Notes under the pieces: model-generated | What the model was told of the DNA's origin: nothing | Seen by the model: the letters and a program-made list of their open reading frames with translations, nothing else | Databases searched by the model: none | Shown here: piece after piece, positions 3,156-41,531 of the stretch | Layout: each line of letters opens with the position of its first letter | How positions within the stretch are numbered: position 1 is the first letter of the stretch | Assembly: GCA_964421015.1 (NCBI GenBank) | Contig: CAYQUS010000001.1 | Location: 364,726-428,725, forward strand | Direction: 5' to 3' | From: an uncultured Planctomycetia bacterium | Lineage (GTDB): Bacteria; Omnitrophota; Gorgyraeia; Tantalellales; Tantalellaceae | DNA: 64,000 nt | Program-made: the position numbers and the translations under genes

Positions 3156-3165
3156 GAGTCCCGGA

Positions 3166-4398: not shown

Positions 4399-4448
4399 TC
4401 GACCTTAACCTGAACCTCAACCTCTTTCTGCTTCCCCCTTCTTACTTC

Positions 4449-6372: not shown

Positions 6373-6463
6373 ATTAGTCCTTTTTTGTTCCTTTTGTTCT
6401 GTTAAATCAACCTCAACCTTAACCTGAAGCTCAATCTTAGCTCTTTACCCTAACTACTTTAAC

Positions 6464-8926: not shown

Positions 8927-9050
8927 TCTTTAAGCCGCATTCGTGCCAGTCACTTAAACTAAACCTTGACCTCAACCTTAGCCTGTCTCCAGACACTTAC
9001 ACTCAACCTTAACCTTGCCCCTTTACTTCCCTCTTACTCCTTACATCTTG

Positions 9051-9986: not shown

Positions 9987-10292
9987 GTTTTTACTCCTTG
10001 TAGACACGTTAGTGCCAGGCACCATTACAAACACACGTTGGTTCCCCCTCGCTACAGTTCAGCTATGCAGTTTCAGTTTTCTCTGCTCATAAAACTGCAG
10101 CTTCACTGGCTCGGGACAGTTCGACCAGGCACCGTCTCGTTATTGCGTTTTTGCGTTACGCGTTATTGCGTCATAACCTTAACTTGACTATAGATTCTTC
10201 GCTTCGCTCATAATGACGTCTCTCAGCCTGGACCTTAACCTAAACCTCAGCCTTAACCTACCCGTTTCCCCTTTCTACTTTCTACTTTCTAC

Positions 10293-14312: not shown

Positions 14313-14374
14313 GAATCCACCTTTTTATTTAGATCCTTCGGTCGCTTCGCTTCCTCAGGATGACGTTCGCCTCG

Positions 14375-14821: not shown

Positions 14822-14875
14822 TGTTGCTCCTTTCTATACATATTGGTGCCCCCTCACTGCCAGGCACCAAAACCC

Positions 14876-16183: not shown

Positions 16184-16400
16184 AATACGCCTTTCTCCTG
16201 TTAAGGGAGAAGAAAACACATATTCACAGGAGCTTAAAAAATGAATATTCCCTTATAATAATAAAGGTCACATCCCTGTTTAACAAATACTGTAAAACAT
16301 CAAAAAACAGCGCCCCAAAAAGCGAAAAACTAAGTTGAAATTATAGCATACCCCTATAAAGGCCGCAATAAAATATGGGTTAGAAGTTGTAGGGGGAAAC

Positions 16401-16443
16401 CCGCGGGGAGAGTGTATCCGAGCACCACAAACGATCCGCCGCC
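16401..16443. repeat. Conserved 43-bp intergenic element, copy 1 (39/43 identical to copy 2 at 31145-31187)
   Basis: ccgcggggagagtgtatccgagcaccacaaacgatccgccgcc. It lies 134 bp after the lptD-like stop and 218 bp before the ugd start. Confidence 0.7.
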
Positions 16444-16576
16444 CGGAAGGGATAAAAATAAGGACACCCCCTGAAGAATCTACTCCTGAAGTATAAAGAT
16501 AGCAGGCTGATCTTGAGGAGCGCAGGATACGCTCTCCCTTAGGTAATCGGTTAGTTCAAGCCGGCACAACCAGATA

Positions 16577-19318
16577 TTACTGCTCCGGTGCCGCGGCGGG
16601 CGGAGAAACCTGTGAAAGTGCTCCCGGGGGCGTCTTGTCATATGCCCTTGAAAGCCCTATCGGAAGCTCGGGGAAGGCCTTAAGCCTGAAGGCCATCCAG
16701 AACGTGAAATCATCCTCGAAAATATTGCTGCCGTCGATGTCATATACCATATCCACAGCCCAGCAGTGAAGGTCTCTTGTAACGGTAAGCTGCTGCTCTT
16801 CTATGTCCAGTTTCTCAATATCATACCTCTGGTAAAGCCCCACACTCCATTTGGGGTTTATTATCCAGCTGGTATCGAAAGTGAACTGGTTACGCGATTC
16901 CTCATCCGGCCTTTTCTCGTATCTGTATCCCAAAGCTGCCTGGAAGGTCTTCCATGGCTGGAGCACAGCTTCCACGCTGTTGGTCTTTACGGCAAAATTT
17001 TCGGTCTCAACTTCCATCCTGTTGTCGAAGTAAAGCCAACTGTACGGCCTGACCTCGAGTTCGGAAGATAACATTGTAAGGCGCGGGCCTTCTTCTTTCT
17101 CCCTGAAAGAGTAGTCCGCCGTCACTATGCTTCGAAGAAGATCAACCGATGCCATTTCCCCGGGAAGCCCTCTTTTTGTCTGAAATTTATTTTCAAAAGA
17201 AAGCTCTATGCCGTTCTGGTGTTCAAGCGCGTCTATCGCGTCCATCTGGTAGAAATGCTCCTTGCTCATGCTGGGCCGGTAGGTGTAGTAATACTGAGCT
17301 TTAGGCACGACTATGTGCCTGAGGCCGTTTATGTCAAGCCCCAGGTAGTCGGTCTTAACATCGTAAACGCGATGGAACCTTATAAAATTATCTACGCCCC
17401 CTCCGAAAGTCCCCCTTGCCGCCGGCTGACTCTGGTTCTTAGTTTTACTGTAGGCAGTCCCCTCAACGGTACCGTACGGCACAATACTCAAAGGCCCGAT
17501 ACCCGTAGCGTAAGATAGTTTCTGATAGGTGTCGGCTCTCCCCACTTTCTCCGGAGGAGACGAAAGAAACTCGTACTCTTTCTCGAAATAGGTCACGGAC
17601 GAAGTAGATCCGTAATAGAACGGTGTATTCCACAACCTCTGGTCGAAGATATCTATCTTGGCCTCCGGCAGACGCTGAGTCACCGTGTAAAAATCGTTAA
17701 ACCTTTTATTAGCCTCAAGGCTGAAGGAATAGTTCGGTTTGGAATTAATGATCGAGATGTAGTTCGCAGGTACGGGATTGTTTTCCTCGTACTCGTTATA
17801 GAAATAGTCCCGTAGAACGTGCTCATCGCTGAGCTTATTGAATTCCATCATACCCACGGTCTCATCGTCAAAATCAAGACGGTGTTTCCACTGTATACGC
17901 CTTCTCCACTCCTGTTTGGTTCCCTCATCCCTGAACTCCGACGGGTCGTATGTGGCGAAACCGTTCTGGTCTATGAAGTATCCTCTGAGAAGTCCTTTGC
18001 CAAGCCCCTCTATCCCGGTGTCGTCAAGGTCGTAGTATAGGTTCCCGCCGAAAGCAAAACCTTTCTTTGTCCTGTAGTCGAGAAGAAGATCGGCCTTGGT
18101 CTCGCCTTTTATGTGCATACGCCAGGCGGAAAGGAGAAAATATCCCCAGTCCGAAGTGACTCCCGGGATGAACTGTACCTTGGCTTTCAAGTCTATGTTG
18201 GGCTGATAGTAGTAAGGTATCCACAAAACCGGAACATCCCCAAGGTAATAGACCACGTTCTTGGCTATCACTTTTTCATTCGGAAAAACCCTTATTTCTT
18301 TGGCTTTCAGATGATAATGCGGTTTGTCATGGTCACAGGTGGTGATGTATCCGTTCTTAAGAACATATTCGTTGGGCCCCACCTTGCCGGTTTCTTCGGC
18401 TGTTGCGAACCACGGGAAGGCCTTGAGATCGGCTCCGGCTATTTCGCCTTCCTTGTTGGCCAGGTCGTACCTTATGTAATCCCCTTCCAGCACGCCTTTG
18501 GGATGCTGTATACGCACGTTACCCTCGCATAGGGCTATCTTAGCCTTGGTATCTATGGATATTTTGTCGCATTTAAGTATCACGTCGCCGTATTGTATGG
18601 CAACGTTACCCTCTGCCGAAATAGTGCCTTTCTCCTGCAGATACTCTACCTTATCCCCATCCACAACGATCGAATGCCCTGACCCGGCGAGAAGATCCAG
18701 CTCGGCGTCCTCTCTTCTTTCAAAAGCGCTCGAAATTTCCTGTTCGTCGACAGATGTTTCTTTTGCGCTTTCCTCCGTCAATACGGCTTTTTCCTCCGCC
18801 AAGCTCTCCGCGGGCGCCGCCTCTTCTTCCTTCTCCCTCAAAGCGTCTTTCTCTTTTTTCTTCTCAAGTTCGGCCGCTTCCTTTTCGGATCTTTTCCTGT
18901 CGGCTTCCTCTTTTTTACGCGCCTTTAAGGCCTGCTTCTGCGTCAAAGCCTCTTTCTTCTGCTTTATTTTAAGATCTTTCAGATCTGCCTGGTATTTCTT
19001 CCACCTCTGTTCGGCGTCGTCAAGATGCTCTAAAAAGGCTTTGGCCACGGGGCTATCCGGGCTCAGTTTCAGAGCCTTTTCTCCGTACGCCCTTGCTTTG
19101 GAATAGTTGTTTACTCCTCTTTCCGCCCTGGCTTTCTCCAGAACCTTGTATATCTCAAGGTTCTTTTTCTGGACTTTCTGGAACTCGGGATCAGCGGAGG
19201 ATTTACCTGCTCCCCAGAAAGCCTCGGAAGGAGCGGCCCAGCCAAGAACCATGGAAAGGCAAAGCAGAACCGAGCATAATTTAGCGAATTTCCCGGTGGT
19301 GATGATATTTTTCATCAA
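16577..19318 (-). CDS. lptD: LPS-assembly outer-membrane protein LptD-like (OstA N-domain plus C-terminal beta-barrel), with a K/E-rich coiled-coil N-terminal extension
   Basis: Signal peptide and OstA-like region 'DGDKVEYLQEKGTISAEGNVAIQYGDVILKCD...ITTCD'; long aromatic-rich C-terminus; the 'KKEEADRKRSEKEAAELEKKKEKDALREKEEE' segment is unusual for LptD. Confidence 0.7.
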   Translation of the reverse strand: MMKNIITTGKFAKLCSVLLCLSMVLGWAAPSEAFWGAGKSSADPEFQKVQKKNLEIYKVLEKARAERGVNNYSKARAYGEKALKLSPDSPVAKAFLEHLDDAEQRWKKYQADLKDLKIKQKKEALTQKQALKARKKEEADRKRSEKEAAELEKKKEKDALREKEEEAAPAESLAEEKAVLTEESAKETSVDEQEISSAFERREDAELDLLAGSGHSIVVDGDKVEYLQEKGTISAEGNVAIQYGDVILKCDKISIDTKAKIALCEGNVRIQHPKGVLEGDYIRYDLANKEGEIAGADLKAFPWFATAEETGKVGPNEYVLKNGYITTCDHDKPHYHLKAKEIRVFPNEKVIAKNVVYYLGDVPVLWIPYYYQPNIDLKAKVQFIPGVTSDWGYFLLSAWRMHIKGETKADLLLDYRTKKGFAFGGNLYYDLDDTGIEGLGKGLLRGYFIDQNGFATYDPSEFRDEGTKQEWRRRIQWKHRLDFDDETVGMMEFNKLSDEHVLRDYFYNEYEENNPVPANYISIINSKPNYSFSLEANKRFNDFYTVTQRLPEAKIDIFDQRLWNTPFYYGSTSSVTYFEKEYEFLSSPPEKVGRADTYQKLSYATGIGPLSIVPYGTVEGTAYSKTKNQSQPAARGTFGGGVDNFIRFHRVYDVKTDYLGLDINGLRHIVVPKAQYYYTYRPSMSKEHFYQMDAIDALEHQNGIELSFENKFQTKRGLPGEMASVDLLRSIVTADYSFREKEEGPRLTMLSSELEVRPYSWLYFDNRMEVETENFAVKTNSVEAVLQPWKTFQAALGYRYEKRPDEESRNQFTFDTSWIINPKWSVGLYQRYDIEKLDIEEQQLTVTRDLHCWAVDMVYDIDGSNIFEDDFTFWMAFRLKAFPELPIGLSRAYDKTPPGALSQVSPPAAAPEQ

Positions 19319-19396
19319 ATCTTCCTTCTTGTTTTTTACCGCCAGCAGTATACCACTTTGAAAATCAAAAATCTACCGCGGTTTTAAGGAATATGC

Positions 19397-20779
19397 CTAC
19401 ACGGTGCACACTTTGTTACGCCCCCTGCGCTTGGCCTTATAAAGGGCTGTGTCGGCCTTTTCCAGAAGCGTTTCTATTCTTGTGCCGTCCTCGGGATAGG
19501 TGGCTATTCCCACGCTGACCGTCATCTTGAGTTCTTCGTCAAAGGCCTTTATGTCTTCCTCTTCCACGCCTTTTCTTATACGTTCGCCTACCGATACAGC
19601 CAGGTCCTTTGTTGTTTCAGGCAGCACCAGACAGAATTCCTCCCCGCCGTACCGGGCTATCATGTCGACTTCCCGAACGGACTTTTTAAGCCTTGAAGCT
19701 ATCTTATTAAGCACCGCGTCTCCCACAAGATGCCCGTACTTATCGTTGCAGTTCTTAAAATGGTCGACATCCACCATCCCTATGGAAAAGGTGAGTTTAA
19801 GCCTTTCCGCTCGGTCTACCTCCTCGGTAAGACGCTCCATGAGATGCCGTCTCAGATAAACTTCGGTAAGCCCGTCCATTATGGAAAGTTCCTGTACCTT
19901 TTCATAAAGCTGCACTTTCCGGAATTCAAGAGCTATCTGCGGAATAAGTATCCTGAACCTTCCGTACATCGCCCTTTGCGCCCCCTCTATGGCAAGTATC
20001 GCGCATATCTCTCCGGCCACGCTTATGGGGAACACGGTAAAAGTGTCAGAAACGACGCCCATTTCCTCGAACAGTTCCTCTGATTCTTCGCGCGTCATAA
20101 AGAACGACCCGGTATCATGTGCGGCGGAACACTCTATTACTTTCCCGCAGTTAATGGAGTCTTCGGCGCGAGAAACCCCGTCCGGCTTCTCCACTCTTTT
20201 TGAAACGCATTTCACGAATTCCATACCCGGGCACACTAAAAGATGCGCCGCCGTGAGGCTGAAATTCTCTTCCAGAAAATCAAAAAGTTCATCAAGAAGG
20301 TTCTCGAACGTAAGCGCCGGGGCGAGTTTCTTTGTTATCTCATACAGCCTGGATATCCTGGAAAGCTCCGTCTCTATCTTCTTCCCTCTCCTGTCGATAG
20401 ACTCAAGTTCGGAAACAAGGCTGTTATACTTTCTCTGGGCCCCTCCCGCCTCATCAAGATAAAGTTCCTCGAACATTCCGTAAAGGGCCGAAGCCACATA
20501 ACTTGCCAGAGCCACCAAAAAGAACAGCGACATAAAAACGACTATATCAATGACGTTAAGAGCGCCCAGGGTCTTGTAAAATACGAGAAAAACAAAGTTC
20601 ATCACGGTTATGACGGCGGCCTGCCGGGGCGAAAAAACGAAGGGCATCATCGCGTAAACTATAGGAACGGCGAAAAGAAAAAGGTATTCGTCTCCGTGCG
20701 GGAACACGTATGCCGCCCAGCTGGCCGCCAAAAGAAGAGCGTTAAGCGCAAAGAGCATGAAAGGCTTCATTTTGAGCAT
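19397..20779 (-). CDS. Membrane-anchored diguanylate cyclase (GGDEF)
   Basis: N-terminal TM helices and 'RYGGEEFCLVLPETT' GGEEF motif. Confidence 0.8.
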   Translation of the reverse strand: MLKMKPFMLFALNALLLAASWAAYVFPHGDEYLFLFAVPIVYAMMPFVFSPRQAAVITVMNFVFLVFYKTLGALNVIDIVVFMSLFFLVALASYVASALYGMFEELYLDEAGGAQRKYNSLVSELESIDRRGKKIETELSRISRLYEITKKLAPALTFENLLDELFDFLEENFSLTAAHLLVCPGMEFVKCVSKRVEKPDGVSRAEDSINCGKVIECSAAHDTGSFFMTREESEELFEEMGVVSDTFTVFPISVAGEICAILAIEGAQRAMYGRFRILIPQIALEFRKVQLYEKVQELSIMDGLTEVYLRRHLMERLTEEVDRAERLKLTFSIGMVDVDHFKNCNDKYGHLVGDAVLNKIASRLKKSVREVDMIARYGGEEFCLVLPETTKDLAVSVGERIRKGVEEEDIKAFDEELKMTVSVGIATYPEDGTRIETLLEKADTALYKAKRRGRNKVCTV

Positions 20780-22227
20780 ACTCTGTTCTTTCCCTTGTTT
20801 TTAGCCCTGTATAAAGCGCGGTCGGCCTCCATTATTATGTCGTCCTTAAGCCTGGCATCCTCGGGAAAAACGCTCACGCCTATGGATACGGTAACTGAAC
20901 ATTTCTTTCTCCTGACTGTTACCGGCGTCTCCTGCACCCTGGCCCTTATTTCTTCCGCTATCTTCACGGCCGATTCCCTATCGGCATTCAAAGCCAGAAA
21001 AGCGAACTCCTCGCCGCCGTACCTGGCGACGGTGTCTCCGGCAGAGGCCTTGCTCTTCAGTATGCTGCCGATATTGTGAAGTATAACGTCTCCCGTCATG
21101 TGTCCGTACTCGTCATTGAACGTCTTAAAATTATCTATATCCAGCATCAAAAGCGCGAAGGAGCTTCCGCTTCTCAAGGCTCTTTTGACTTCCTCATCGA
21201 GCCTTTCCATGAAGTACCTGTGCACATATAGGCCGGTCAGGCTGTCCCTTATTGCCAGGTCCTCGGTTTTTCGGTACAGCCTGGCGTTCTCCATGGCCAC
21301 AGCCGCCAGGTCCCCTATAATATCCAGCATTCTCAGCTCATGCGCCGTGAAGTCGTCCTCTTTGGGAGAATCGACCCGCAAGACCCCGAGAACACGTCCT
21401 TCCATTATGAGGGGTTTTACCATAAGAGAAACAGCGTCGTCTTTCTCCTCTTTTCCCTTCACAGAGAACCTGAAGTCTTCCTTGACGTCTCTGACCAGAA
21501 GGCTCTTGGTGTTCTTTATGGCCCAACCGTCGAATATGCCTCCTTTTTTGCTCTCGAAAGCCTTTCTACCCGGGCCCTTCAGTGTACAGCAAAGATTAAG
21601 CCCCCCGGACTCGGGATTGACGGTAAAAAGTAGAACACGGTTGTCCCCCTTGAATATCTCGAAGGTCTCATGCGCGACGGTGTTAAGTATCTCCTCTTCC
21701 CTTAAAGTTATCCCTATCTTGTCGGCTACGCCTTTAAGTTTCAAAAGCCCGTCTATCTTGGTCCCCATCGCGGAAACTTCTCTCTCCCTGTTCTTCATGT
21801 GGTCGCTTATGAGATTGTTGTCCTCCGAGATCTTCTCCATAGTGACCTTGTGGTTCTGACGGGACCTGTGGTATTTCCTGTTAAGGTGATACCCTTCGAA
21901 TATAAAAACAAAGAAAACCACTATCAGAGAAGCGTAATATTGCGGATCCGTGGATGTCAGGGGCCGATGCAGGAATATCATGGTAAGAAGAAAAGAAATA
22001 AGCCCTGACACTACCCCAAGAGCGCTCCAAAGGAACATCATTAAGGCGCCCGTAAGAATTACCGAACTGAGTATTATGAACTCGACATGCTGCACTTTCC
22101 CGGAAAGAAAAGGTCCTATGGAATTTATGTTGCGTAAAAGAAGAAGGAAAAGCAACAGAGAAAAACCGGCAAGAACGTTTTTTCTTACAGTTGGCGTAAT
22201 GAAGTTGGCCATAAAAAGCCTAAACAA
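20767..22227 (-). CDS. Membrane-anchored diguanylate cyclase (TM, GAF-like, GGDEF)
   Basis: 'RYGGEEFAFLAL' motif; overlaps the downstream GGDEF gene by 13 nt. Confidence 0.8.
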   Translation of the reverse strand: MFRLFMANFITPTVRKNVLAGFSLLLFLLLLRNINSIGPFLSGKVQHVEFIILSSVILTGALMMFLWSALGVVSGLISFLLTMIFLHRPLTSTDPQYYASLIVVFFVFIFEGYHLNRKYHRSRQNHKVTMEKISEDNNLISDHMKNREREVSAMGTKIDGLLKLKGVADKIGITLREEEILNTVAHETFEIFKGDNRVLLFTVNPESGGLNLCCTLKGPGRKAFESKKGGIFDGWAIKNTKSLLVRDVKEDFRFSVKGKEEKDDAVSLMVKPLIMEGRVLGVLRVDSPKEDDFTAHELRMLDIIGDLAAVAMENARLYRKTEDLAIRDSLTGLYVHRYFMERLDEEVKRALRSGSSFALLMLDIDNFKTFNDEYGHMTGDVILHNIGSILKSKASAGDTVARYGGEEFAFLALNADRESAVKIAEEIRARVQETPVTVRRKKCSVTVSIGVSVFPEDARLKDDIIMEADRALYRAKNKGKNRVCSK

Positions 22228-23323
22228 TGGTTTTTTCGGTCACCTTATCGAAAAAGTGCACCTTGCTCATATCGAAAACAACGTCCATGTCCAGGTTTAT
22301 CTGAGGGTTGGCGTCCCCGGGAACTTTGGCTATTAAAACATGTTTTCCCGTATTGAGATGCACATACGCTTCCGAGCCCAAATGTTCCACGACTTCGCAT
22401 GTCATGGTAACAATATTTTCCGGGGGGACCTCCGAAACCGAAAGTTTGTCGTAAATATTCTCGCTCCTTATACCCATAAGAAGCCTCTTGTCCGTATAGC
22501 TGTCCAGAACGTCGTACATACCCTCGACAAGTTTTATACGGAAGTTCCCCTCGTCGAAATACAGCTTTTTGTCCTTTTTCACTATCTTGCCCTCCATGAA
22601 ATTCATGGGAGGCGCGCCTATAAAACTTGCCACGAATTTATTGACAGGCCTGTTATACACAGCTGTGGGGGTATCTATCTGCTGTATGACCCCGTCCTTC
22701 ATTACTACTATCCTGTCCCCCAGTGTCATGGCCTCGGTCTGATCATGCGTCACGTATATCATGGTGGACTGTAGCCTTATATGAAGCCTTCTTAATTCGA
22801 TCCGCATCTGGGCCCTGAGCTTGGCGTCGAGGTTGCTCAGAGGTTCGTCGAAAAGAAAAACAAGAGGTTTTCTCACTATGGCTCTTCCCACAGCCACCCT
22901 CTGTCTCTGCCCGCCTGAAAGTTCACGTGGCTTACGGCTGAGCAGGTTCTCAAGCCCCAGTATGCCCGCGGCTTCCTTTACACGGGTATCTATCTCTTCC
23001 TGCGGATATTTTTTGAGTTTAAGGCCGAAAGCCATATTCTCATATACCGTCATATGAGGATACAAAGCATAGTTCTGAAAGACCATCGCTATATCACGGT
23101 CTTTTGGAGGAAGGCCGTTCACCTTGCGTTCGCCGATGAATATCTCCCCGGCGGAGACGTTCTCGAGCCCGGCTATAAGGCGGAGCGTAGTGGTCTTGCC
23201 GCACCCGGAAGGCCCTACTATCACCATGAATTCCTTGTTGTCAACCCCGAAACTAACGTCGTTGACAGCTTTTATTCCGCCTTGGAACTCTTTAACAACG
23301 CTTCTTAGACTGACTTGTGCCAT
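22220..23323 (-). CDS. ABC transporter ATP-binding protein, MalK/UgpC/MsmK sugar-import type
   Basis: Walker A 'GPSGCGKTT', signature 'LSGGQRQRVA', Walker B 'FLFDEPLSNLD' and a C-terminal TOBE-like domain. No permease or substrate-binding-protein genes are adjacent. Confidence 0.85.
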   Translation of the reverse strand: MAQVSLRSVVKEFQGGIKAVNDVSFGVDNKEFMVIVGPSGCGKTTTLRLIAGLENVSAGEIFIGERKVNGLPPKDRDIAMVFQNYALYPHMTVYENMAFGLKLKKYPQEEIDTRVKEAAGILGLENLLSRKPRELSGGQRQRVAVGRAIVRKPLVFLFDEPLSNLDAKLRAQMRIELRRLHIRLQSTMIYVTHDQTEAMTLGDRIVVMKDGVIQQIDTPTAVYNRPVNKFVASFIGAPPMNFMEGKIVKKDKKLYFDEGNFRIKLVEGMYDVLDSYTDKRLLMGIRSENIYDKLSVSEVPPENIVTMTCEVVEHLGSEAYVHLNTGKHVLIAKVPGDANPQINLDMDVVFDMSKVHFFDKVTEKTIV

Positions 23324-23422
23324 TTTATCACTTTTTTTATTTTCAGGAAAATCTTCTTCCCTAAACTATATACAACAGTCTGACAGCCATTGTCAACGCA
23401 ATTCAGGCCGTTCCCGGGCCCG

Positions 23423-24265
23423 TCAAGCCTCGGAAGTGTAGTCTATGAGCGAACCTATTTTTTTTCTTATGTCGTTGCGGTGGACTATCATATCTATGAG
23501 ACCATGCTCAAGAAGGAACTCCGAGCTCTGGAACCCTTCCGGAAGGTCCTGCTTTATGGTCTGCTGTATTACCCTCGGGCCGGTAAACCCTATGAGTGCC
23601 CTGGGTTCTGCCATTATTATGTCGCCGAGCGACGCGAAACTCGCCATTACCCCCGCCATTGTCGGGTTAGTAAGAAGGGATATGAAAAATCCCCCGTTCC
23701 GGTTGAACCTGTCCAGCGCCGCGCTGGTTTTAGCCATCTGCATAAGAGAGAACATCCCCTCGTACATCCTGGCGCCTCCGCCCGAACCCGACACTATTAT
23801 TAGCGGTAATTTCTCCGCGTCGGCAAACTCTATAAGCCTCGTTATTTTCTCCCCAACGACCGATCCCATGGAGCCCATTATGAACCTCGAGTCCGTGGCT
23901 CCGATGGCCACCCTTCTTGAATCTATGTATCCTTCTCCCACGACAGCCGCTTCTTTAAGACCTGTTGCCTTCTGATCGTTCTTGATCTTTATCGGGTAGC
24001 CGGTCGGCCCCTTGAACTTAAGGGGATCCTTGCTTTCCATGTCCTTGAACATTTCAGAGAAAGTCCCGGGATCCACCATGTTTTCTATTCTTTCATAAGC
24101 CCCAAGCCTGAAATGGTAATCACATTTCGAGCATACGCTTGAAGACTCTTTCAGCTTCTTGTTGTACAAAAGCTCGCCGCACCCGGGACATTTGGTCCAA
24201 AGTCCGCCGGGCATATCTCTTTTTTTCTTTTTACCGAAAATCGGTTTTCTGGAGAAAAATGACAT
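23423..24265 (-). CDS. accD: Acetyl-CoA carboxylase carboxyltransferase beta subunit
   Basis: N-terminal Zn ribbon 'CPGCGELLYNKKLKESSSVCSKCDYH' plus a CT domain. Confidence 0.9.
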   Translation of the reverse strand: MSFFSRKPIFGKKKKRDMPGGLWTKCPGCGELLYNKKLKESSSVCSKCDYHFRLGAYERIENMVDPGTFSEMFKDMESKDPLKFKGPTGYPIKIKNDQKATGLKEAAVVGEGYIDSRRVAIGATDSRFIMGSMGSVVGEKITRLIEFADAEKLPLIIVSGSGGGARMYEGMFSLMQMAKTSAALDRFNRNGGFFISLLTNPTMAGVMASFASLGDIIMAEPRALIGFTGPRVIQQTIKQDLPEGFQSSEFLLEHGLIDMIVHRNDIRKKIGSLIDYTSEA

Positions 24266-24282
24266 CTTTTTTCCTTATTTTG

Positions 24283-25593
24283 TTATGATATGCAGCTTTT
24301 GCCGGCTTTTTCCTTCTGGTCCTCGAACCTGTTTATAACAAGCCCCGTGAGCAGCTTCGGATAGAAATAGGTGGATTTCTGCGGCATCATTTCCCCGTCC
24401 TCAGCTACCGCCTTAAGCTGCCCTATTTTTGTGGGATTGAGGAAAAAAGCGGCTTTACCCTCGCCTTTCAGGACCATTTCGCGAGCCTCTTCCGGGTCTT
24501 TAAAATAGACTATATCCCCCTCTTCGGCCTTTATTCCAAGTACCTTATCAAAAACTGAGGAATGCAGAACGCTAACGTCTAGACCTTTCCAGGATTCTGG
24601 TTTGCCTTTTATAAAATCCCTGAGCGCGATGGGATCTATCGGTTCAAGGAGCGTGTACCCTTCTGTATCGAACAAGCCGTAAACATAACTTTTCTGCCTG
24701 CGCCTGTCCATCTGGTCTATAAGCTCATCCAGACCGTTAAACTTTGTAAGATTGAAATATTCGCCGAGACGGGAACGTATATCTCTTACGGATGTACCCT
24801 TAAAGCCTTTTATCACCCTGTGCGTGGCAAGTACCGTAAGGTTCTCCGGATCGGACATGTCCGTAAGGTACATAAGCACATGATCCGCTCTGCCGTCGTA
24901 CCCCTGTTTCTCCCGGCACATATCCCTGTAGGCTCTCGCCACAGCGTACCGGTGATGCCCGTCGGCTATGAAGATTTTTCTGCCTGCCATCGCTCCCGTT
25001 ATTTCCGATATCTCTCCGTCGTCGTGAAGTCTCCACAGCATGTGTCTCACGCCGTCGATCTCTATATCTATGATGGGCTTCTCGGATGATGCCTGCCGCT
25101 TAAGAACACCGGATATCCTGCCACCATCGCCGCCGTAAAGACCGAATATAGGACTCAAGTTGCTCTCAACCTCTTTTATGAGCTTCATGCGGTCTTCTTT
25201 GGGTTTGGAAAGGGTATGTTCGTGAGGAAGAACGACCTCTGTTCCCTCGACCTTCATAAGACAGAGAAAACCCAAACGTCTGAAAATTTCGCCGCGCAGC
25301 TCATATTCCTGCTGGTATACGTAAAAGGCCTCTTCCTGATCCGTACGTAGAACGCCTGAACGTATCCATTCCGACATAGCTATTCTGGCGCGCGAATACT
25401 TGTTGTTTTTTTCGTCATCGCCGGGATTGTCCTTGCCAAGGATCAGCTTTACAACGTTATATTCGCTTTTCCGGTAAAGTTCTTCCCTCATTTCCGGAGA
25501 TATTACGTCGTAAGGCGGAGCCATGACTTCCGCCATGTCCCGCAGAAACTCAAAATTATAAAGTAACCCTTTGAATGGCTTTACTTCCGCCAT
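24283..25593 (-). CDS. DUF1015-family protein
   Basis: 'VKPFKGLLYNFEFL...APPYDVIS' N-terminal signature of DUF1015 (COG4198). Confidence 0.65.
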   Translation of the reverse strand: MAEVKPFKGLLYNFEFLRDMAEVMAPPYDVISPEMREELYRKSEYNVVKLILGKDNPGDDEKNNKYSRARIAMSEWIRSGVLRTDQEEAFYVYQQEYELRGEIFRRLGFLCLMKVEGTEVVLPHEHTLSKPKEDRMKLIKEVESNLSPIFGLYGGDGGRISGVLKRQASSEKPIIDIEIDGVRHMLWRLHDDGEISEITGAMAGRKIFIADGHHRYAVARAYRDMCREKQGYDGRADHVLMYLTDMSDPENLTVLATHRVIKGFKGTSVRDIRSRLGEYFNLTKFNGLDELIDQMDRRRQKSYVYGLFDTEGYTLLEPIDPIALRDFIKGKPESWKGLDVSVLHSSVFDKVLGIKAEEGDIVYFKDPEEAREMVLKGEGKAAFFLNPTKIGQLKAVAEDGEMMPQKSTYFYPKLLTGLVINRFEDQKEKAGKSCIS

Positions 25594-25970
25594 AACACCA
25601 ACCTTCCGAAATATAGTCCTGCAGCAGCTCCTCCGGAGTTAAAAAGAGCGTCATACAGACAGGTCTCTCTTCCCGGCACAAAGCTCTGGAACAGTTCAAT
25701 TAAGATACCATAACCTATTATTAATATCAACGCAAATGCTGTATTTTTGAAGGAAGGAATTACCCCTGAAGATTTAATGCCCAATGCCGACAGAAAAGCC
25801 AGAGAACCATACGCGGCGAAGTGTAACACTTTATCAAAATGATCTGGCTGGAGATCCGCCTTTAATTTATAAGGAAGCAGGGAGAAAAAAAGTATACCGA
25901 AAGCCAGCATGCCCGCGGGCGCCCAGGGGAAAAAACGCTTTTTTGCCTCGTCCCGGCTTAAAAATGCCAT
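25581..25970 (-). CDS. VanZ-like membrane protein
   Basis: 129 aa, 3-4 TM segments, 'DKVLHFAAYGSLAF...ELFQSFVPGR'. Confidence 0.55.
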   Translation of the reverse strand: MAFLSRDEAKKRFFPWAPAGMLAFGILFFSLLPYKLKADLQPDHFDKVLHFAAYGSLAFLSALGIKSSGVIPSFKNTAFALILIIGYGILIELFQSFVPGRETCLYDALFNSGGAAAGLYFGRLVLWRK

Positions 25971-25971
25971 C

Positions 25972-26226
25972 TTACCCCGAACAGGAGTCGCAGCAGCCTT
26001 TAGCCCCGCAGGAAGGTTTTTCGGGACTTTTATCTTTTCCGCAAGAGGGTTTATAATCAGTCTGGTAAAAACCTTTACCTTTAAAGATCACTCCGGCACC
26101 CGTGCTTATCATTCGTTCCACGTCGCCTTTGCATTGCGGGCATTCTTTTACCGGACTTTCCGTCATGCTCTGGAACTTCTCGAATTTGTGGCCGCATTTC
26201 TTACACTGATATTCATAAGTGGGCAT
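25972..26226 (-). CDS. FmdB-family zinc-ribbon protein
   Basis: '[13 protein letters not shown]...CPQCKG' paired CxxC motifs; 84 aa. Confidence 0.6.
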
Positions 26227-26237
26227 TCTGTCTCCTT

Positions 26238-27356
26238 TTATGTGAAAATATCCTTTACCTTGTTGACGATATTCTTTTTCCCGGCGGTTTTCTTCCCTCC
26301 AAGGCTCTCGTTAAACTCAGATAAAAGTTCTTTCTGCCTGGCATTAAGATTCGCAGGAATAATAACGCTGACCTTCACAAGCTGGTCGCCGGAACCTCTG
26401 CCGTCGAGCCTTTTTATTCCTTTGCCTTTTAGCCTGAAAACATGCCCCGAAGATGTTCCCGCGGGAATCGCCAGTTTTACGGATCCATCTATTCCGGGAA
26501 CATCTATTTCATCGCCCATGACAAGCTGATAAAAAGAAACGTCTGCGGAATACAGAAGATCGTACTCTCGCCTTGAAAAGAACTTATGTTCTCTTACGCT
26601 TATCCTGACGTACAGGTCGCCGCACGGACCCCCGTTCTCCCCCGGCTCCCCTTCCCTGGATATCCTGAGCTTAACCCCGGTATCCACACCTGCCGGCACT
26701 TTAACCGATATCTTCTTGGAAACCTCGACCCTGCCGCGTCCCGAGCAGGAGGTACAAGGATCTTTTATGGTCTCTCCCGTACCGCCGCAAACATCACATG
26801 TAGTTGCTATGCTGAAAAAACCGGCGGACCTGGCAACCTGTCCCGTACCGCCGCAGCGTTCACACCTTGCTTTCGATGTCCCCGGCTTAGCCCCGGACCC
26901 ATCGCATGGCGCGCAAACATCCTGTTTTCGTATTTTTATTTCTTTTGTTACCCCTTTTACCGCTTCCATGAAGTCTATAGTGAGCGAATACTCAAGGCTT
27001 GCTCCCCTGGACGCTCTCCTGGGACCGCCGCCCCCGAAACCGAACATACCGTCGAACATCCCCCCGAAAGCCCCGCCGAAAACCTCCCTGAATATCTCGC
27101 TTGGGTCATGGAACCCGAACCCGGAAGATCCCCCGCCCTGGAAAGCCGCTTCCCCAAAACGATCGTACCTTTCTCTTTTTCCGGGATCGCTCAGCACCTC
27201 GTAGGCGTGGGATATCTCCTTGAACTTCTCTTCGGCTTCCTTGTTCCCCGGGTTTTTGTCGGGATGGTATTTGAGCGCGAGTTTCCTGTAGGCTTTTTTC
27301 AGTTCTTCGCCTGAAACTCCGCGCTCAACACCCAGAATATCGTAATAATCACCCAT
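26238..27356 (-). CDS. dnaJ: Chaperone DnaJ
   Basis: J-domain 'YYDILGV...HPDKNPG', G/F-rich region, four CxxCxGxG motifs. Confidence 0.9.
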
Positions 27357-27394
27357 ACTTTCCTTTAAAGCCTCCCCAAAAGCGCCAAGGCCTG

Positions 27395-29305
27395 TCAGTT
27401 TTTATCTTTATCGTCGTCAACTTTGTAATCGGCGTCAACGACATCTTCCTCTTTCTTTCCCTGGCTTTGTTCCTGGCCCGCGGCGGATTCCTGCTTGGAC
27501 TGCGCCGCCTTGTATACTTCCTCTGAAAGCTTGTGGCTCGCTTTCTGGAGAGCCTCCTGGGCTTTTTTCATCTCGGACACGTCCTCGGAAGAAAGCGTTT
27601 TCCTGGCATCTTCCACCGCCGAGGCTATCTTCTTCTTCTCGTCGTCGGAAACCTTATCGCCGTAATCTTTAACCGCTTTCTCCGTAGCGTATATCAGGTT
27701 ATCCAGCTGGTTCCTGACCTCAACCAGTTCCCTCTTCCTCTTGTCGTCGCTTTCGTGGGCCTTAGCATCGGCCTTCATTTTTTCTATCTCGTCCTTGGAA
27801 AGACCGCTGGAAGATTCTATCCTTATGGACTGCTCTTTTCCCGTAGCCTTGTCTTTCGCCGAAACGTGCACTATACCGTTGGCGTCTATGTCGAAGGTCA
27901 CCTCTATCTGGGGGATACCCCTGGGAGCGGGCGGTATTCCCACAAGATCAAAACGCCCGAGCGTCCTGTTGTCGCTTGACATCTCCCTTTCACCCTGAAG
28001 GACCAGTATGGACACCGCCGTCTGGTTATCGGCCGCGGTCGAAAATACCTGGCTTTTCTTGGTAGGGATAGTGGTATTCCTCTCTATGAGTTTTGTCATT
28101 ACTCCGCCCAGGGTCTCTATACCCAGCGATAGAGGTGTAACATCAAGCAGCACGACATCCGAAAGACCTTCCGCGCCGCTTAGAACGCCGCCCTGTATTG
28201 CCGCGCCTATGGCCACAACTTCATCCGGATTTACCCCTTTGTGCGGCTCTTTTCCGAAAATCTCCTTTACCACCTGCTGAACCTTAGGCATACGGGTCTG
28301 GCCGCCTACCAGTATGACCTCGTCGATATCCGAGGGTGAATATCCCGAATCTTTGAGGGCCTTGTAGCACGGCGCCTTTGTCCTTTCCACCAGATCGTCC
28401 ACAAGCTGTTCCAGCTTGGACCTTGTAAGCGTCATTGTAAGGTGTTTCGGCCCGGAAGCGTCGGCCGTTATGAACGGAAGGTTTATCTCCGTTTCAAGAT
28501 TCGAAGAAAGCTCGCATTTGGCTTTTTCAGCGGCTTCCTTCAGCCTTTGCAGAGCCATCTTATCTTTCCTGAGGTCTATCCCGTTCGATTTTTTGAACTC
28601 TTCGGCTATCCAGTTCATAACCGTCTGGTCGAAGTTATCTCCCCCGAGATGTGTGTCTCCGTTAGTGGATTTTACCTCAAAAACACCGTCACCCACGTCA
28701 AGAATGGAGATATCGAAAGTTCCTCCGCCAAGGTCGAATACGGCTATTTTTTCGTTTTTCTTGCTGTCCAGCCCATATGCCAGGCTGGCGGCGGTAGGCT
28801 CGTTTATTATCCTCAAGACTTTAAGACCGGCTATTTCTCCGGCGTCCTTGGTAGCCTGCCTCTGAGAATCGTTGAAGTAGGCCGGTACGGTTATGACCGC
28901 TTCGGTTACCTTTTCTCCAAGATAATCTTCCGCCGTCTGCTTCATTTTTTGGAGTATCATCGCCGACACTTCGGGCGGTGTATATTTTTTGCCGTGACAG
29001 GCTACGACCACGTTACCCTTAGCGTCGTCCTCTACCTTGTACGGCACCAGCTTTTCCTCTTCCATAACTTCGGAATGCTGTCTGCCCATGAACCTTTTTA
29101 TGCTGAAAATAGTGTTGTCGGAGTTGGTCACAGCCTGTCGTTTCGCCGGCTGGCCGACAAGTTTTTCGCCTGTTTTGGTGAACGCCACCACGCTCGGCGT
29201 CGTGCGGGCGCCCTCGGCGTTAGTAATTACCTTAGGCTCCTTGCCTTCCATCACCGCCACGCAAGAATTAGTTGTTCCAAGATCTATACCGATTACTTTT
29301 CCCAT
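27395..29305 (-). CDS. dnaK: Chaperone DnaK (Hsp70)
   Basis: '[13 protein letters not shown]', 'DLGGGTFD', '[10 protein letters not shown]'. Confidence 0.95.
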
Positions 29306-29316
29306 AGTTATCCTCC

Positions 29317-29892
29317 TTATTCCATTTCCCCGGCTATTTCATCTAAACTGTTCTTCGCCACTTTCACCTGAGCGGCGCGCAGTAATCTGTCATTGAACAC
29401 GTACCCCGGCCTTACCTCCTCAACTATCTCACCGTCAGGGACATCGCCGGTCTCAACCGCCATGACGGCCTCATGCAGATTGGGATCGAACTGTTTTCCA
29501 ACCGTTTCTATTTTTTTAACTCCCGAATCCTCAAGCACACGGTGAAACTCCTTCTGCACGAGCTTTATGCCTTCAAGCATAGCGCCTTTATCCTCGGCCT
29601 TTTCCATTGCCGCGAAAGCCATATCAAAATTATCCATGATCGGGAAAAGCCTCGATATTATCCCTTCGTTCGCGAACCTTATATGCTCGTATTTCTCTTT
29701 CTCCAGCCTTTTTTTGGTATTCTCATACTCGGCGTGCACATTGAGCCATTTGTTGTAGTACTCGTCCCTTTCGGCAGCCTTTTTCCTCAGGTCCTCTGCT
29801 TCCGGGGGGAACGATTGCCCTGCGTCCTGTGACTCATCATCCCGGACATCCCGGGAAGCGGCGTCATCTTTGTGTTTTTTGTCCCTGTGCAT
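29317..29892 (-). CDS. grpE: Nucleotide exchange factor GrpE
   Basis: GrpE-family C-terminal region '[20 protein letters not shown]'; sits in the dnaK operon. Confidence 0.85.
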
Positions 29893-29894
29893 GG

Positions 29895-30953
29895 TTATCC
29901 GTCTATCTCCTCAAGTTTCGCGCTTATAAGGCTGGAAAGGCACCTTACTGTCCTTAGCGCCCTGTCATAATCCATCCTGGTAGGCCCCACAACTCCCATT
30001 CTCCCGGCGGCCTTACCCCTGAAAAAATAACCGCAGGTAACTATACTGCAGTCTTTTAGTATCTCGCTGCCGCACTCCTCGCCGATGTAAACCCTTACGT
30101 CTCCCGAAGAGAGATCTCTGGTGAGTATACCGGCAAGCTCGCTCTTCCTGTCCGAAAAAACGTGAAAAACCTTGCGTATGACGTTTATGTCCGAAAATTC
30201 CGGCTCATTCATGAAGTTGTCTATGCCTTCCATGTATATCTCGCTGTCCGCGTTATCGCTTACAATACCGTCCAGTACCTTCAGCGCCGTAAGAGCCGTT
30301 TCTCTGGCCTCTCCCCTGAGCTCACCGGAAACTTTATCCATGGCTGTCTTTATGTTCTCAGATATCCCCGATACAGGTTTTTCGGCGTGATTTTCGTTTA
30401 TGTACCTCGCCACCCTGCCAAGCTCATCCGAACTCATCTCTCTATCCAGCCTTATCAGGTGGTTTTTAACGGCATTGGTCATAGTAACAAGCACCGCCAG
30501 GGCCATCTGAGAACTCAATTTAATAAGTTCAAGATGCTTGAGGTAGAGATTGTCCACTCCGGGCCAAACCATCACTCCGGCATTGTGAAGTTCCCTGCTT
30601 ATAAGATACGTCGTCTTCTCTATGACGTCTTTTATGGTCTCTATCTTTCTCGTATACTCCTGCGCCAGCCGTTCAGCCTCTCTTTTGCGGTAGCTTATGT
30701 TCTCGGTCTTCATCGAGACATAACGCCTGTACCCTGCGGTTGTCGGGACACGTCCCGCCGAAGTATGCGGCTGCTCTATGAACCCCTGATGCTCGAGCTC
30801 TCCCATAACGTTCCTGATGGTAGCGCTTGAGACATTCCCTCCCATTTTCTCGGCCACTGTCTTAGAGCTCACCGGTACTGCGCTCGAAACATAAGCCTCA
30901 ACAATATGGGCTAGAACGATGTCTTTTCTGTGGTCTTTACGCAAATTGTCCAC
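29895..30953 (-). CDS. hrcA: Heat-inducible transcription repressor HrcA (GTG start)
   Basis: wHTH N-terminus, HrcA family, directly downstream of a CIRCE operator. Confidence 0.9.
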   Translation of the reverse strand: MDNLRKDHRKDIVLAHIVEAYVSSAVPVSSKTVAEKMGGNVSSATIRNVMGELEHQGFIEQPHTSAGRVPTTAGYRRYVSMKTENISYRKREAERLAQEYTRKIETIKDVIEKTTYLISRELHNAGVMVWPGVDNLYLKHLELIKLSSQMALAVLVTMTNAVKNHLIRLDREMSSDELGRVARYINENHAEKPVSGISENIKTAMDKVSGELRGEARETALTALKVLDGIVSDNADSEIYMEGIDNFMNEPEFSDINVIRKVFHVFSDRKSELAGILTRDLSSGDVRVYIGEECGSEILKDCSIVTCGYFFRGKAAGRMGVVGPTRMDYDRALRTVRCLSSLISAKLEEIDG

Positions 30954-30983
30954 TTTTATCTGACCTCACTACTTGAAAATCTT

Positions 30984-31010
30984 TTAGCACTCTTTTAGTT
31001 CGAGTGCCAA
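30984..31010 (-). promoter_or_regulatory. CIRCE operator (HrcA binding site)
   Basis: TTAGCACTC-N9-GAGTGCCAA versus consensus TTAGCACTC-N9-GAGTGCTAA (one mismatch); 30 nt upstream of the hrcA GTG. Confidence 0.85.
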
Positions 31011-31011
31011 A

Positions 31012-31039
31012 ATTATATCATTGTCGATGTTTTTGTCAA
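31012..31039 (-). promoter_or_regulatory. Sigma70-type promoter of the hrcA-grpE-dnaK-dnaJ operon
   Basis: On the minus strand: TTGACA (31034-31039), 16 nt, TATAAT (31012-31017), immediately 5' of CIRCE. Confidence 0.7.
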
Positions 31040-31089
31040 GAGGAAGGTTCGAGGCAGTGAGGGGATGAGGTTGGAAACACAGACACTTT

Positions 31090-31118
31090 GGTGACAGGCA
31101 CCAATGGTGCCTGTCACC
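31090..31118. repeat. REP-like palindrome GGTGACAGGCACC-aat-GGTGCCTGTCACC (perfect 13-bp arms); probable hflX terminator
   Basis: Seen directly; shares the 5' flank 'agacactttggtg' with the copy at 3117-3155. Confidence 0.8.
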
Positions 31119-31144
31119 TAGGTATCGGGTATCGTTGAGAACAA

Positions 31145-31187
31145 CCGCGGAGAGAGTGTATTCGAGCACCGAAAACGATCCGCCGCC
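31145..31187. repeat. Conserved 43-bp intergenic element, copy 2
   Basis: ccgcggagagagtgtattcgagcaccgaaaacgatccgccgcc; 115 bp after the hflX stop and upstream of the hrcA promoter. Confidence 0.7.
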
Positions 31188-31301
31188 CTATTCGGCTTTT
31201 TGTTATTGGCGTGATGGATAGATATCGGCGTACAAAACCCTTTCGGAACCATTTTTAGCAGAGAAAAAGCAGGAAGCTGAAATGAGGAAGTTAGGTAAAA
31301 T

Positions 31302-32598: not shown

Positions 32599-33522
32599 TT
32601 AAGGCTTAAAACCCGCCTTTAAGGCTATATCCTGGGCTATCTTCTCCGTCGGCCGCTCGGCATCTATCCATTCTATCCCGTCTACAGACCTCAGCCATGT
32701 CATCTGGCGCTTGGCGTATTGCCGGGTCTTTATCTTCAATTCTTCCTTGGCTTGTTCAATGCTTATCTCTCCGAGAACATACTGTAAAACTTCACTGATC
32801 CCCAGGGCTTTCGACGCCGTTAAACTTACATCCCTTCCCATCAGGCTTTCTACTTCTTCGATAAGCCCGCCCGCGAACATCTCCTCCACTCTTTTGTCTA
32901 TCCGCCCGACAAGAACGTCTCTATTCACCTTCAAAGCGAAAAGTTTAACGTCATACTTGTCCGTAAGACCCTTGGTCTCGGTTTTCTTTTCCGAAAATGT
33001 TTTTCCTGTGAGTTTGAACACCTCGAGCGCCCTGATAACCCGGCGAATATTTTGAGGATCTATCTTCAAAGCGGCTTCCGGGTCTATTCTTTTAAGTTGT
33101 TCATAGATGAACATATACCCTTTTTCGGCGGCCTGTCTCTCCAACTGCGCGCGGAAGTCGCTGTCTTTGGGCGGCGACGGAAAAAGACCGTCTATCAGGG
33201 CCTTGGCGTAAAGCCCTGTACCTCCCGAAATAACCGGCGTCTTTCCCTCGAGTATAAGCCGGTCCACTATCCCGATGGCGGACTCGGCGAAAGATGCCGC
33301 GCTGAACTCCTCCAAGAGAGAGATGACACCCACAAGATGATGCCTTACCCTCTTCATAAGCTCAGGAGACGGAGCCTGGGTAAGTATTTCCATGCCGCTG
33401 TAAACCTGCATGGAATCACAGGATATTATCTCTCCGCCGGCTATCTCGGCAAAACGTACGGCAGTTTCGCTTTTCCCGCTGGCCGTCGGACCGAGTATAA
33501 AAATAACGGTGCGCGATGTCAT
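32599..33522 (-). CDS. miaA: tRNA dimethylallyltransferase
   Basis: 'VIFILGPTASGKSE' P-loop. Start trimmed to 33522 (MTSRT); its ATGA overlaps the RAYT stop. Confidence 0.9.
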   Translation of the reverse strand: MTSRTVIFILGPTASGKSETAVRFAEIAGGEIISCDSMQVYSGMEILTQAPSPELMKRVRHHLVGVISLLEEFSAASFAESAIGIVDRLILEGKTPVISGGTGLYAKALIDGLFPSPPKDSDFRAQLERQAAEKGYMFIYEQLKRIDPEAALKIDPQNIRRVIRALEVFKLTGKTFSEKKTETKGLTDKYDVKLFALKVNRDVLVGRIDKRVEEMFAGGLIEEVESLMGRDVSLTASKALGISEVLQYVLGEISIEQAKEELKIKTRQYAKRQMTWLRSVDGIEWIDAERPTEKIAQDIALKAGFKP

Positions 33523-34151
33523 ATATGTTTTTCCTTGCTGGGGGCAAGAAGGGACACGGCATGCCGTTCCCCCACTTCCCCCCATTTAACAGGGTTATTC
33601 ATGATATATTCACGAATTCGTGCAAGATCGGATCCGTCCCGGATAATATGTTCGTAATAATTGCGTTGCCAAAGGCACGTTCCGGATGTATTTTGGATTT
33701 CGTTTATTCGTTTTGTCACCGCGGATTTAAATGAACGCATGACCGTTGATAATGATCCGGATACCGGTTTCCCGAAACGTTCGATTTTTTCGTTACGACT
33801 TCCGTCCGATGTAGGGGCACTTCCGTCCGATGTAGGGGCACGGCATGCCGTGCCCCTACATGCATCATCAACACCATCGTTGGACAATTGATCGCCGCAT
33901 CCACCGATCATTATTATTCCATGTATGTGATCGGGCATGACAACATATTCGTCCAATTTGATATTTGAAAAATGTTCGGGAATTGCGCTCCAACATTGTT
34001 TGATGATATTACCATACACATTTAACACCATTTTGCCGTTGTTAACATCACCGAATATGCATTTGCCGTTGGCACACACCGTCACATAATACGCTCCTTC
34101 CCGGGTGTAATCGTATCCTTTTAAACGTATTGACCTGCGGCTACCCGTCAT
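33519..34151 (-). CDS. IS200-like HuH-Y1 transposase / REP-associated tyrosine transposase (RAYT) with an in-frame low-complexity insertion
   Basis: 'YYVTVCANGKCIFGDV', HuH motif 'VVMPDHIHGII', catalytic Tyr region 'WQRNYYEHIIRD'. Its start overlaps the miaB stop by 1 nt (TAATG) and its stop overlaps the miaA start (ATGA). It contains a 21-bp tandem duplication (33799-33840) and a 28-bp perfect palindrome (33832-33859). Confidence 0.7.
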   Translation of the reverse strand: MTGSRRSIRLKGYDYTREGAYYVTVCANGKCIFGDVNNGKMVLNVYGNIIKQCWSAIPEHFSNIKLDEYVVMPDHIHGIIMIGGCGDQLSNDGVDDACRGTACRAPTSDGSAPTSDGSRNEKIERFGKPVSGSLSTVMRSFKSAVTKRINEIQNTSGTCLWQRNYYEHIIRDGSDLARIREYIMNNPVKWGEVGERHAVSLLAPSKEKHI

Positions 34152-37763: not shown

Positions 37764-37828
37764 TATCACTGACAGAGCGCGCCTCGCCCGACCCTCGGCC
37801 GACACCCCCTTCCAAGGACCCGCGAACC
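37764..37828. repeat. Direct repeat A (about 65 bp, roughly 80% identical to 57044-57106)
   Basis: Shared blocks tatcactg...cgcgcctcgcccgaccctc...ttccaaggaccc..gaacc. Confidence 0.7.
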
Positions 37829-37968
37829 GGCATCGAGCAACCAGTGACAACAATGACATTTTTTCTCACGGTTATCTTCTTACTTTCCACACTCAACCCC
37901 TTTGCTCCTTACTCTTAACCTACGAACACAATTAATGAAAATTCCTGTCATAATCGTCATAGCCGTCA

Positions 37969-40098: not shown

Positions 40099-40100
40099 CG

Positions 40101-40331
40101 TTACACTCCGTTTTGAAATAGATAATCTTTAACCCTTCGATAACAATCGAACAGCTTGCGCGCCTCTGAATCGGCATAAAAGTCCTCGCAGGCTTTATGA
40201 ACAGCCTGGATGTCATCAAACAAGACCCGTTTAAGCCTCCCCGAGCCCTCAATCCCCCGCATGGCAAACCCGCAATACAGTAAGTAGGTAGCCAGATAGA
40301 GATTCCCTGCCTCAAAATGCTTGTTTTTCAT
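40101..40331 (-). CDS. Hypothetical 76-aa protein upstream of the primase
   Basis: ORF only; its stop abuts the primase start. Confidence 0.3.
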   Translation of the reverse strand: MKNKHFEAGNLYLATYLLYCGFAMRGIEGSGRLKRVLFDDIQAVHKACEDFYADSEARKLFDCYRRVKDYLFQNGV

Positions 40332-40344
40332 GGTTTCAATGCCT

Positions 40345-40830: not shown

Positions 40831-41143
40831 AATAAAAAAAACCATTCCCGGCCAATTGACTGGAAATGGCTTTTCCCGCACAGGCGGAACAGTGATCAGC
40901 TGTCCCGTAAGTCTATATTGATTTTATAACAGCGCGAATCTTTCTTTAGCCCAAATAATGACAGCGAAGCTGGCATTATTTGCCCGAAGGGTCGGCCGAT
41001 AAAATCGCCAGATTTTATCGAAGCCGAGGCAATCCCGAAAAATGCACTATCTATATTTTAATCCAGCCATTTTTCGGGGCAAGGGGGTCGTTACTACAAA
41101 TTGGTAATAATTCGGAGAGGGCTAAAAACGGAGATTTTGAAGC

Positions 41144-41524: not shown

Positions 41525-41531
41525 AATACCC

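Follow-up and report, generated by a model that had tools for sequence, protein, structure and literature searches.

A 44-nucleotide sequence found in both the lptD-ugd and hflX-hrcA spacers of an uncultured Omnitrophota bacterium is most likely ordinary repeat DNA

Does the same short sequence ahead of two different operons mark a common control element, or have two spacers simply received the same piece of repeat DNA? The question is raised by a 64,000-nt stretch of contig CAYQUS010000001.1 (positions 364,726 to 428,725; the whole stretch analysed is called the window here), in which a 44-nt sequence occurs in both the lptD-ugd spacer and the hflX-hrcA spacer. The window belongs to Candidatus Omnitrophota, judging by homologues of HrcA and LptD, and Pfam identifies the four neighbouring genes as coding for LptD, UDP-glucose dehydrogenase, HflX and HrcA, as they had already been named in a preliminary description of this DNA. 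That description offered three options for the element: a transcription-factor site, a 3'-untranslated-region (3'-UTR) or small RNA module, or a fragment of a miniature inverted-repeat transposable element (MITE). Our analysis indicates that the 44-bp feature is most likely ordinary repeat DNA and not a conserved control element.

The repeat itself is real and well above chance. Its two copies are the following.

16401..16444, minus strand: copy 1 of the 44-nt repeat, in the lptD-ugd spacer; minus-strand reading GGGCGGCGGATCGTTTGTGGTGCTCGGATACACTCTCCCCGCGG
31145..31188, minus strand: copy 2 of the 44-nt repeat, in the hflX-hrcA spacer; minus-strand reading GGGCGGCGGATCGTTTTCGGTGCTCGAATACACTCTCTCCGCGG

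A repeat search of the window returned them as a direct repeat with 40 of 44 positions identical (91%), forming the two-member family D12. Two 43-bp copies with 39 of 43 identical positions had been reported before; both were found where they had been placed, and the unit extends to 44 nt. The four differences between the copies fall at element positions 7, 18, 27 and 28 (plus strand), so that both copies are described on the minus strand by GGGCGGCGGATCGTTT[GT/TC]GGTGCTCG[G/A]ATACACTCTC[C/T]CCGCGG. When one copy was used as a blastn query against the window, the other was found at E 5e-11, and an nhmmer profile built from the two recovered them at E 3e-14 and 3e-13, with the next match at E 0.63. 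A 19-nt core occurs twice in the window, against 0.02 expected occurrences. Exactly two 44-nt copies are present within the 64 kb, 14.7 kb apart and in the same orientation.

Similarity between the two spacers stops sharply at the edges of the 44-nt core. Smith-Waterman alignment of the flanks (115-135 nt upstream and 150 nt downstream) gave scores not above shuffled controls, the sole downstream match being the -10 box. The core also stands out in composition, with 64-68% GC compared to 40-41% for the remainder of both spacers. Whereas no obvious self-complementarity had been noted before, folding as single-stranded DNA and self-reverse-complement scores show the 44-mer to be a weak imperfect palindrome. 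In copy 2 the plus strand folds back from one end to the other as an imperfect hairpin with 14 pairs (-8.5 kcal/mol, z -2.8, equalled by 2 of 200 shuffles). Copy 1 keeps 12 of these pairs and loses two in the apical stem (z +0.1). Scored globally against its own reverse complement, copy 2 reaches p 0.018 and copy 1 p 0.08. The apical stem of the fold-back contains three of the four substitutions, and these break the hairpin, with no compensatory changes. The repeat begins and ends where the fold-back has its foot, in keeping with a discrete hairpin-type unit. For scale, a genuine hairpin repeat located in copy 2's own spacer has z -6.8; it belongs to a repeat family separate from the 44-mer (families D2, D3, I2 and I16).

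31081..31127, unstranded: REP-like 13-bp hairpin GGTGACAGGCACC-ATT-GGTGCCTGTCACC, between copy 2 and the hrcA promoter; -16.5 kcal/mol

Comparison with other genomes indicates when the element arrived. The same species was found in three further data sets at 99.3-99.9% DNA identity. Copy 2 is unchanged in contig L002 (ERZ795059) and copy 1 in contig L010 (SRR27544757), while the third contig, L007 (JGI 3300010355), starts 60 nt upstream of hrcA, short of the element. The next relatives have 72-80% protein identity and the same gene order, miaA-hflX-hrcA-grpE-dnaK-dnaJ...GGDEF-lptD-ugd, and they permit a comparison of the two spacers together with their promoters and CIRCE (the HrcA site).

16340..16368, minus strand: ugd promoter (TTGCGG, 17-nt spacer, TGCTATAAT), 32 nt downstream of copy 1, identified by its conservation in relatives L008 and L132
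31039-31012, minus strand: hrcA promoter (TTGACA, 16-nt spacer, TGATATAAT), a perfect (12/12) sigma-70 match, followed by CIRCE
within 30977..31039, minus strand: CIRCE operator TTGGCACTC-N9-GAGTGCTAA, after the hrcA promoter and kept in relatives without the 44-mer
hflX-hrcA spacer in relatives L003 (HrcA 77%), L004 (72%) and L131 (80%): TTGACA...TGATATAAT promoter and CIRCE kept, element and hairpin missing
lptD-ugd spacer in relatives L008 (LptD 78%), L009 (75%) and L132/L133 (75%): element missing in all

The ugd promoter is kept in L008 and L132/L133, and the lptD-ugd spacer of L009 is just 50 nt long. A search of all the relatives' loci with the two-copy profile gave no match. Since the element is missing from the orthologous spacers, both sites acquired it within the window species' own lineage. 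One relative, on scaffold ERZ23498500 (loci L003 and L008), offers both spacers for inspection, and these have only the -10 box in common; the pairing of the two loci is therefore not ancestral. Both spacers are also expanded in the window species, the lptD-ugd spacer measuring 393 nt against 223, 50 and 253 nt in relatives and the hflX-hrcA spacer 348 nt against 233 and 122 nt, which supports a reading as copied repeat DNA. Contig L007 and contig L006, the latter from a relative, start 60 and 107 nt upstream of hrcA, near CIRCE and the promoter, and such starts are consistent with assembly breaks at repeated sequence.

Our preferred reading is that the 44-mer is an interspersed repeat, short, rich in GC and weakly palindromic, which is restricted to this Omnitrophota species or its closest kin and was copied into two slots; we put it forward tentatively, as having somewhat less than an even chance of being right in this full form. 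It draws on a repeat that is real, sharply bounded, missing from the orthologous spacers of relatives and set among other repeats, and on the end-to-end imperfect hairpin (14 pairs in copy 2, 12 in copy 1), which has the general shape of the REP type. After the split from the sequenced relatives, a discrete 44-bp unit would have been copied into two permissive intergenic slots, each past the end of one transcription unit and ahead of the next promoter. The copying would likely be the work of mobile DNA or of a process that spreads repeats, such as that of REP/BIME or non-autonomous elements, and the copies would since have diverged by four substitutions. We infer, rather than observe, a larger dispersed family elsewhere in the genome, the mode of spread and the lack of a host function.

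How well does the 44-mer resemble known systems of this kind? Repetitive extragenic palindromes (REP) and their mosaic clusters (BIME) are spread by REP-associated tyrosine transposases (RAYTs) (PMC3337134, PMC3116915). Like them, the 44-mer is short (in the 20-45 nt class), GC-rich, intergenic, located past gene ends, lineage-specific and of imperfectly palindromic shape. In addition, copy 2 lies only 17 nt from the strong REP-like hairpin, an arrangement resembling a BIME mosaic, and a RAYT-like gene is present within the same window, 2.3 kb from copy 2.

33519..34151, minus strand: RAYT-like (Y1/HUH) gene of 210 aa, between miaB and miaA; Y1_Tnp (PF01797), and the NCBIfam RAYT model NF047646 at E 1.6e-20 and 73.4 bits (cut-off 80)

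A RAYT-like enzyme and several repeat families together give this genome a setting of the kind in which short intergenic units spread (REP/RAYT biology: PMC3337134, PMC3116915). REPs number tens to hundreds of intergenic copies per genome; of the 44-mer, two copies are known, in 64 kb. Unlike REPs, it has only a weak palindrome, which falls short of significance in copy 1, and each copy stands singly, without the inverted pairs known as REPINs. Five nt from copy 1 there is one GTAGGGG; copy 2 has no equivalent, and the window contains the sequence about as often as chance predicts. With MITEs the element has in common that it is a discrete non-coding unit in unrelated intergenic regions, missing at the orthologous sites of relatives, although at 44 bp it is below the typical MITE length. 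The IS200/IS605-derived palindrome-associated elements (PATEs) offer another likeness: their ends lack inverted repeats, and they carry an imperfect hairpin, either subterminal or whole-length. PATEs depend on a Y1/HUH transposase, and the gene at 33519-34151 is of such a kind. However, a conserved cleavage tetranucleotide or guide is not identifiable from two copies, and no linked IS200/IS605 element with the same ends was found.

Several observations weigh against our preferred reading. The palindromic character is weak by the z and p values given above, and neither GTAG nor CTAC, the motif type of REPs, occurs inside the element. The 44-mer does not flank the RAYT-like gene, to which no direct link was found, and this gene is context only. 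Terminal inverted repeats of the MITE kind are missing, the ends being CCGCGGGGAGAG... and ...GATCCGCCGCCC with only a 4-nt GCGG/CCGC complement, and inspection of the flanks revealed no target-site duplication common to both copies. Only two copies are known, and scans of representative genomes and metagenomes added no dispersed family. Finally, with two copies, 91% identity fits recent copying and purifying selection equally well. Of the options in the preliminary description, the MITE fragment comes out best, in the broad sense of copied repeat DNA (missing in relatives, sharply bordered and lying in expanded, repeat-carrying spacers), but not as a strict MITE, given the absence of terminal inverted repeats and of a target-site duplication. 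Att-site repeats flanking an island were also considered and rejected: the 14.7 kb between the copies holds hrcA-grpE-dnaK-dnaJ...GGDEF-lptD in the same order as in relatives without the repeats. Because the defining tests for REP, MITE and att sites failed, we file the 44-mer only under the broad kind of short interspersed intergenic repeats.

Further copies were sought in wider collections. The exact 18-base core GGTGCTCGNATACACTCTC had a single match among 185,579 species (one genome each), in Erythrobacter, and we rejected it as chance since its flanks are unrelated. A 23-base pattern retrieved from a metagenome collection only the same-species hflX-hrcA contig. In viral contigs a 17-mer had no match and a GC-rich 15-mer had chance matches only, none of which could be extended, and blastn against phage records and plasmids gave nothing meaningful. 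As far as these sequence scans reach, they rule out a widespread, well-conserved family in sequenced relatives and are compatible with a species-specific one. The lptD-ugd copy itself was not recovered by the metagenome scan, which means that the collections hold little of this species and that the lack of further matches is weak evidence.

These counts bear directly on the nearest rival, a one-off ectopic duplication in which a single patch was copied between the spacers by templated repair synthesis or gene conversion, with no family and no function. We regard this as unlikely; it differs from our preferred reading solely in the copy number it predicts for the genome. It agrees with the exactly two copies lying 14.7 kb apart in the same orientation and with the absence of more copies from the public collections scanned; moreover, other two-copy intergenic repeats occur in the window (37764-37830 with 57044-57108), suggesting that local copying may be common. 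On the other hand, borders that coincide with the foot of the fold-back suggest a defined unit and not a random patch, and missing matches count for little in collections so poor in this species.

Could the element instead be a DNA site at which a bound protein ties expression of the hrcA-grpE-dnaK-dnaJ heat-shock operon to that of ugd and the sugar-nucleotide genes in this species? Its position ahead of promoters speaks in favour. On the minus strand, copy 1 lies 132 nt past the lptD stop and copy 2 lies 113 nt past the hflX stop, close to the 115-135 bp reported earlier, and both copies do precede the -35 box of the next operon's promoter, as had been claimed. The 44-mer is also far more alike in the two spacers than the sequence around it. 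A further point in favour of such a site comes from E. coli, where lptD, hflX and the heat-shock genes each have links to stress regulons. Yet the distance from the element to the downstream -35 box is 32 nt at ugd and 105 nt at hrcA, so that element-promoter spacing is not conserved, and at copy 2 the REP-like hairpin intervenes. All called genes of at least 150 aa in the window are on the minus strand, as is every plausible ORF across the 64 kb, and the common side of the copies relative to genes therefore tells little; the informative part of the placement is the common orientation of the copies, a 1-in-2 event.

The element is missing from all relatives, whose promoters are otherwise conserved, and by inspection no dyad or direct-repeat half-sites survive in both copies, the second CGGAT having become CGAAT in copy 2. 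CIRCE deserves mention here, as the 44-mer contains the pentamers GAGTG and AGCAC found in CIRCE half-sites and the hrcA CIRCE follows copy 2 at a distance of about 160 nt. However, these pentamers are wrongly ordered, do not form TTAGCACTC-N9-GAGTGCTAA and make no dyad, and the real CIRCE is a separate site kept in relatives; the resemblance was rejected. Alternative promoters were rejected as well: inspection gave no acceptable match to sigma-54, ECF (extracytoplasmic function), sigma-32 or sigma-70 consensus sequences, and a sigma-70 scan listed none inside the element, which bears out the earlier statement that it has no sigma-70 or sigma-54 match. Nor did inspection find a match to IHF, DnaA-box, dif or parS sites. 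With no conservation in relatives, unequal promoter distances and no sigma-70, sigma-54 or ECF-like match, the transcription-factor option of the preliminary description is disfavoured, and we consider such a species-specific regulatory site quite improbable.

Still less probable, in our assessment, is an RNA element that works by way of a hairpin or a protein-binding motif, either as a small RNA or as a 3'-UTR module in the mRNAs of lptD and hflX. Both copies lie 113-132 nt past a stop in the sense orientation, each is a GC-rich island in an AT-rich spacer, and an imperfect hairpin can form. Nevertheless, no Rfam model reached its gathering score anywhere in the window, and relaxing the limit to E 10 brought up nothing but noise near the two copies. 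The minimum-energy folds differ between the copies and are no better than shuffles except for the plus strand of copy 2. The substitutions concentrated in the apical stem leave it broken in copy 1, with none compensatory, and neither strand has a sigma-70-like promoter or an intrinsic terminator bracketing the element. It is not conserved in relatives, and a CsrA-type pair of GGA motifs was rejected because one GGA is lost in copy 2. The RNA-module option is thus disfavoured for want of bracketing signals, of a fold stable in both copies, of covariation and of an Rfam match.

A tRNA or tmRNA fragment was rejected, since ARAGORN found no tRNA or tmRNA and no arm-like pattern was seen by eye in the element. 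Copy 1 can pair at long range, through GGAUACACUCUCC, with GGAGAGCGUAUCC (16538-16526); this was also discarded, as copy 2 offers nothing equivalent and the blast E is 2.7. All six frames are open across the element, but a coding sequence was rejected: in every frame examined the substitutions alter the encoded amino acid, a ribosome-binding site is lacking, and the short open reading frames that cross the element differ between the copies. Finally, it is about as improbable as the RNA element that the 44-mer is a recently acquired, selected cis element (a protein-binding DNA site or 3'-UTR RNA motif) providing joint, species-specific control of cell-envelope sugar synthesis (ugd and the sugar-nucleotide genes downstream) together with the HrcA/DnaK heat-shock operon, its 91% identity being held by purifying selection.

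Besides the 44-mer, the window contains the RAYT-like gene and other repeats. The RAYT-like protein has an HIH motif and the sequence YYEHIIR, and its gene overlaps both miaB and miaA (stop/start TAATG and ATGA) and is missing at the same position in relatives L004 and L003. From its sequence and position, it looks like a domesticated RAYT within a housekeeping operon. Its coding region contains palindromes of the form GTAGGGGCACGGCATGCCGTGCCCCTAC, perfect or nearly so, at 33539-33584 and 33811-33863, one of them in the middle of the gene and one near the 3' end, together with a 21-nt tandem duplication (two copies of GTAGGGGCACTTCCGTCCGAT); a weaker copy of the GTAGGGGCACGGCATGCCGTGCCCCTAC type is at 59740-59765. 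These palindromes are better candidates for cognate REPs than the 44-mer. The strong hairpin family, GGTGACAGGCACC-N3-GGTGCCTGTCACC and variants, is found just past gene ends at 2330-2370, 3118-3158, 10002-10042, 14843-14869 and 31081-31127.

Other repeats are of more varied form. The direct repeat at 37764-37830 and 57044-57108 is about 66 nt long with 80% identity, and its copies, 19.3 kb apart, bracket genes for a primase-polymerase/D5 helicase, a radical SAM protein, a type I restriction R subunit and an AbiEi-like protein, with a large serine recombinase gene (35422-37101) just outside the 37764-37830 copy; these repeats may mark the two ends of a mobile element that has integrated here. 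The spacers at 14313-14374 and 2274-2371 share another two-copy intergenic repeat, 46 nt long and 83% identical (blast E 7e-7). Several genes of sugar-nucleotide biosynthesis have motifs of the AACCTCAACCTTAACCTG type in the spacers immediately ahead of them on the minus strand (4314-4333, 4396-4423, 6407-6437, 8957-8985 and 10223-10260). A tandem duplication with a 59-nt unit, a period of 62 and 78% identity lies at 40346-40466, in a 1.4-kb gene-poor stretch (40099-41531). The ugd 5' leader (16184-16340) contains a terminator-like hairpin followed by a T-run (CGCTTTTTGGGGCG CTGTTTTTTG) at 16311-16324 on the minus strand, about 15-30 nt downstream of the conserved ugd promoter, and a second promoter-like site comes after this hairpin. 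This leader is about 90 nt longer than that of relative L008, which is without the hairpin; it may be a leader/attenuator or another insertion.

If the 44-mer does belong to a dispersed family, it would be one more species-specific intergenic repeat for the uncultured phylum Omnitrophota, a possible strain marker, and could account for some of the assembly breaks. It would be more important only if it were truly a selected regulatory site common to envelope and heat-shock operons, which the present evidence disfavours. For the spread of repeats in this lineage, a more tractable lead is arguably offered by the strong hairpin repeats and the RAYT-like gene embedded within miaB-miaA-hflX, taken together.

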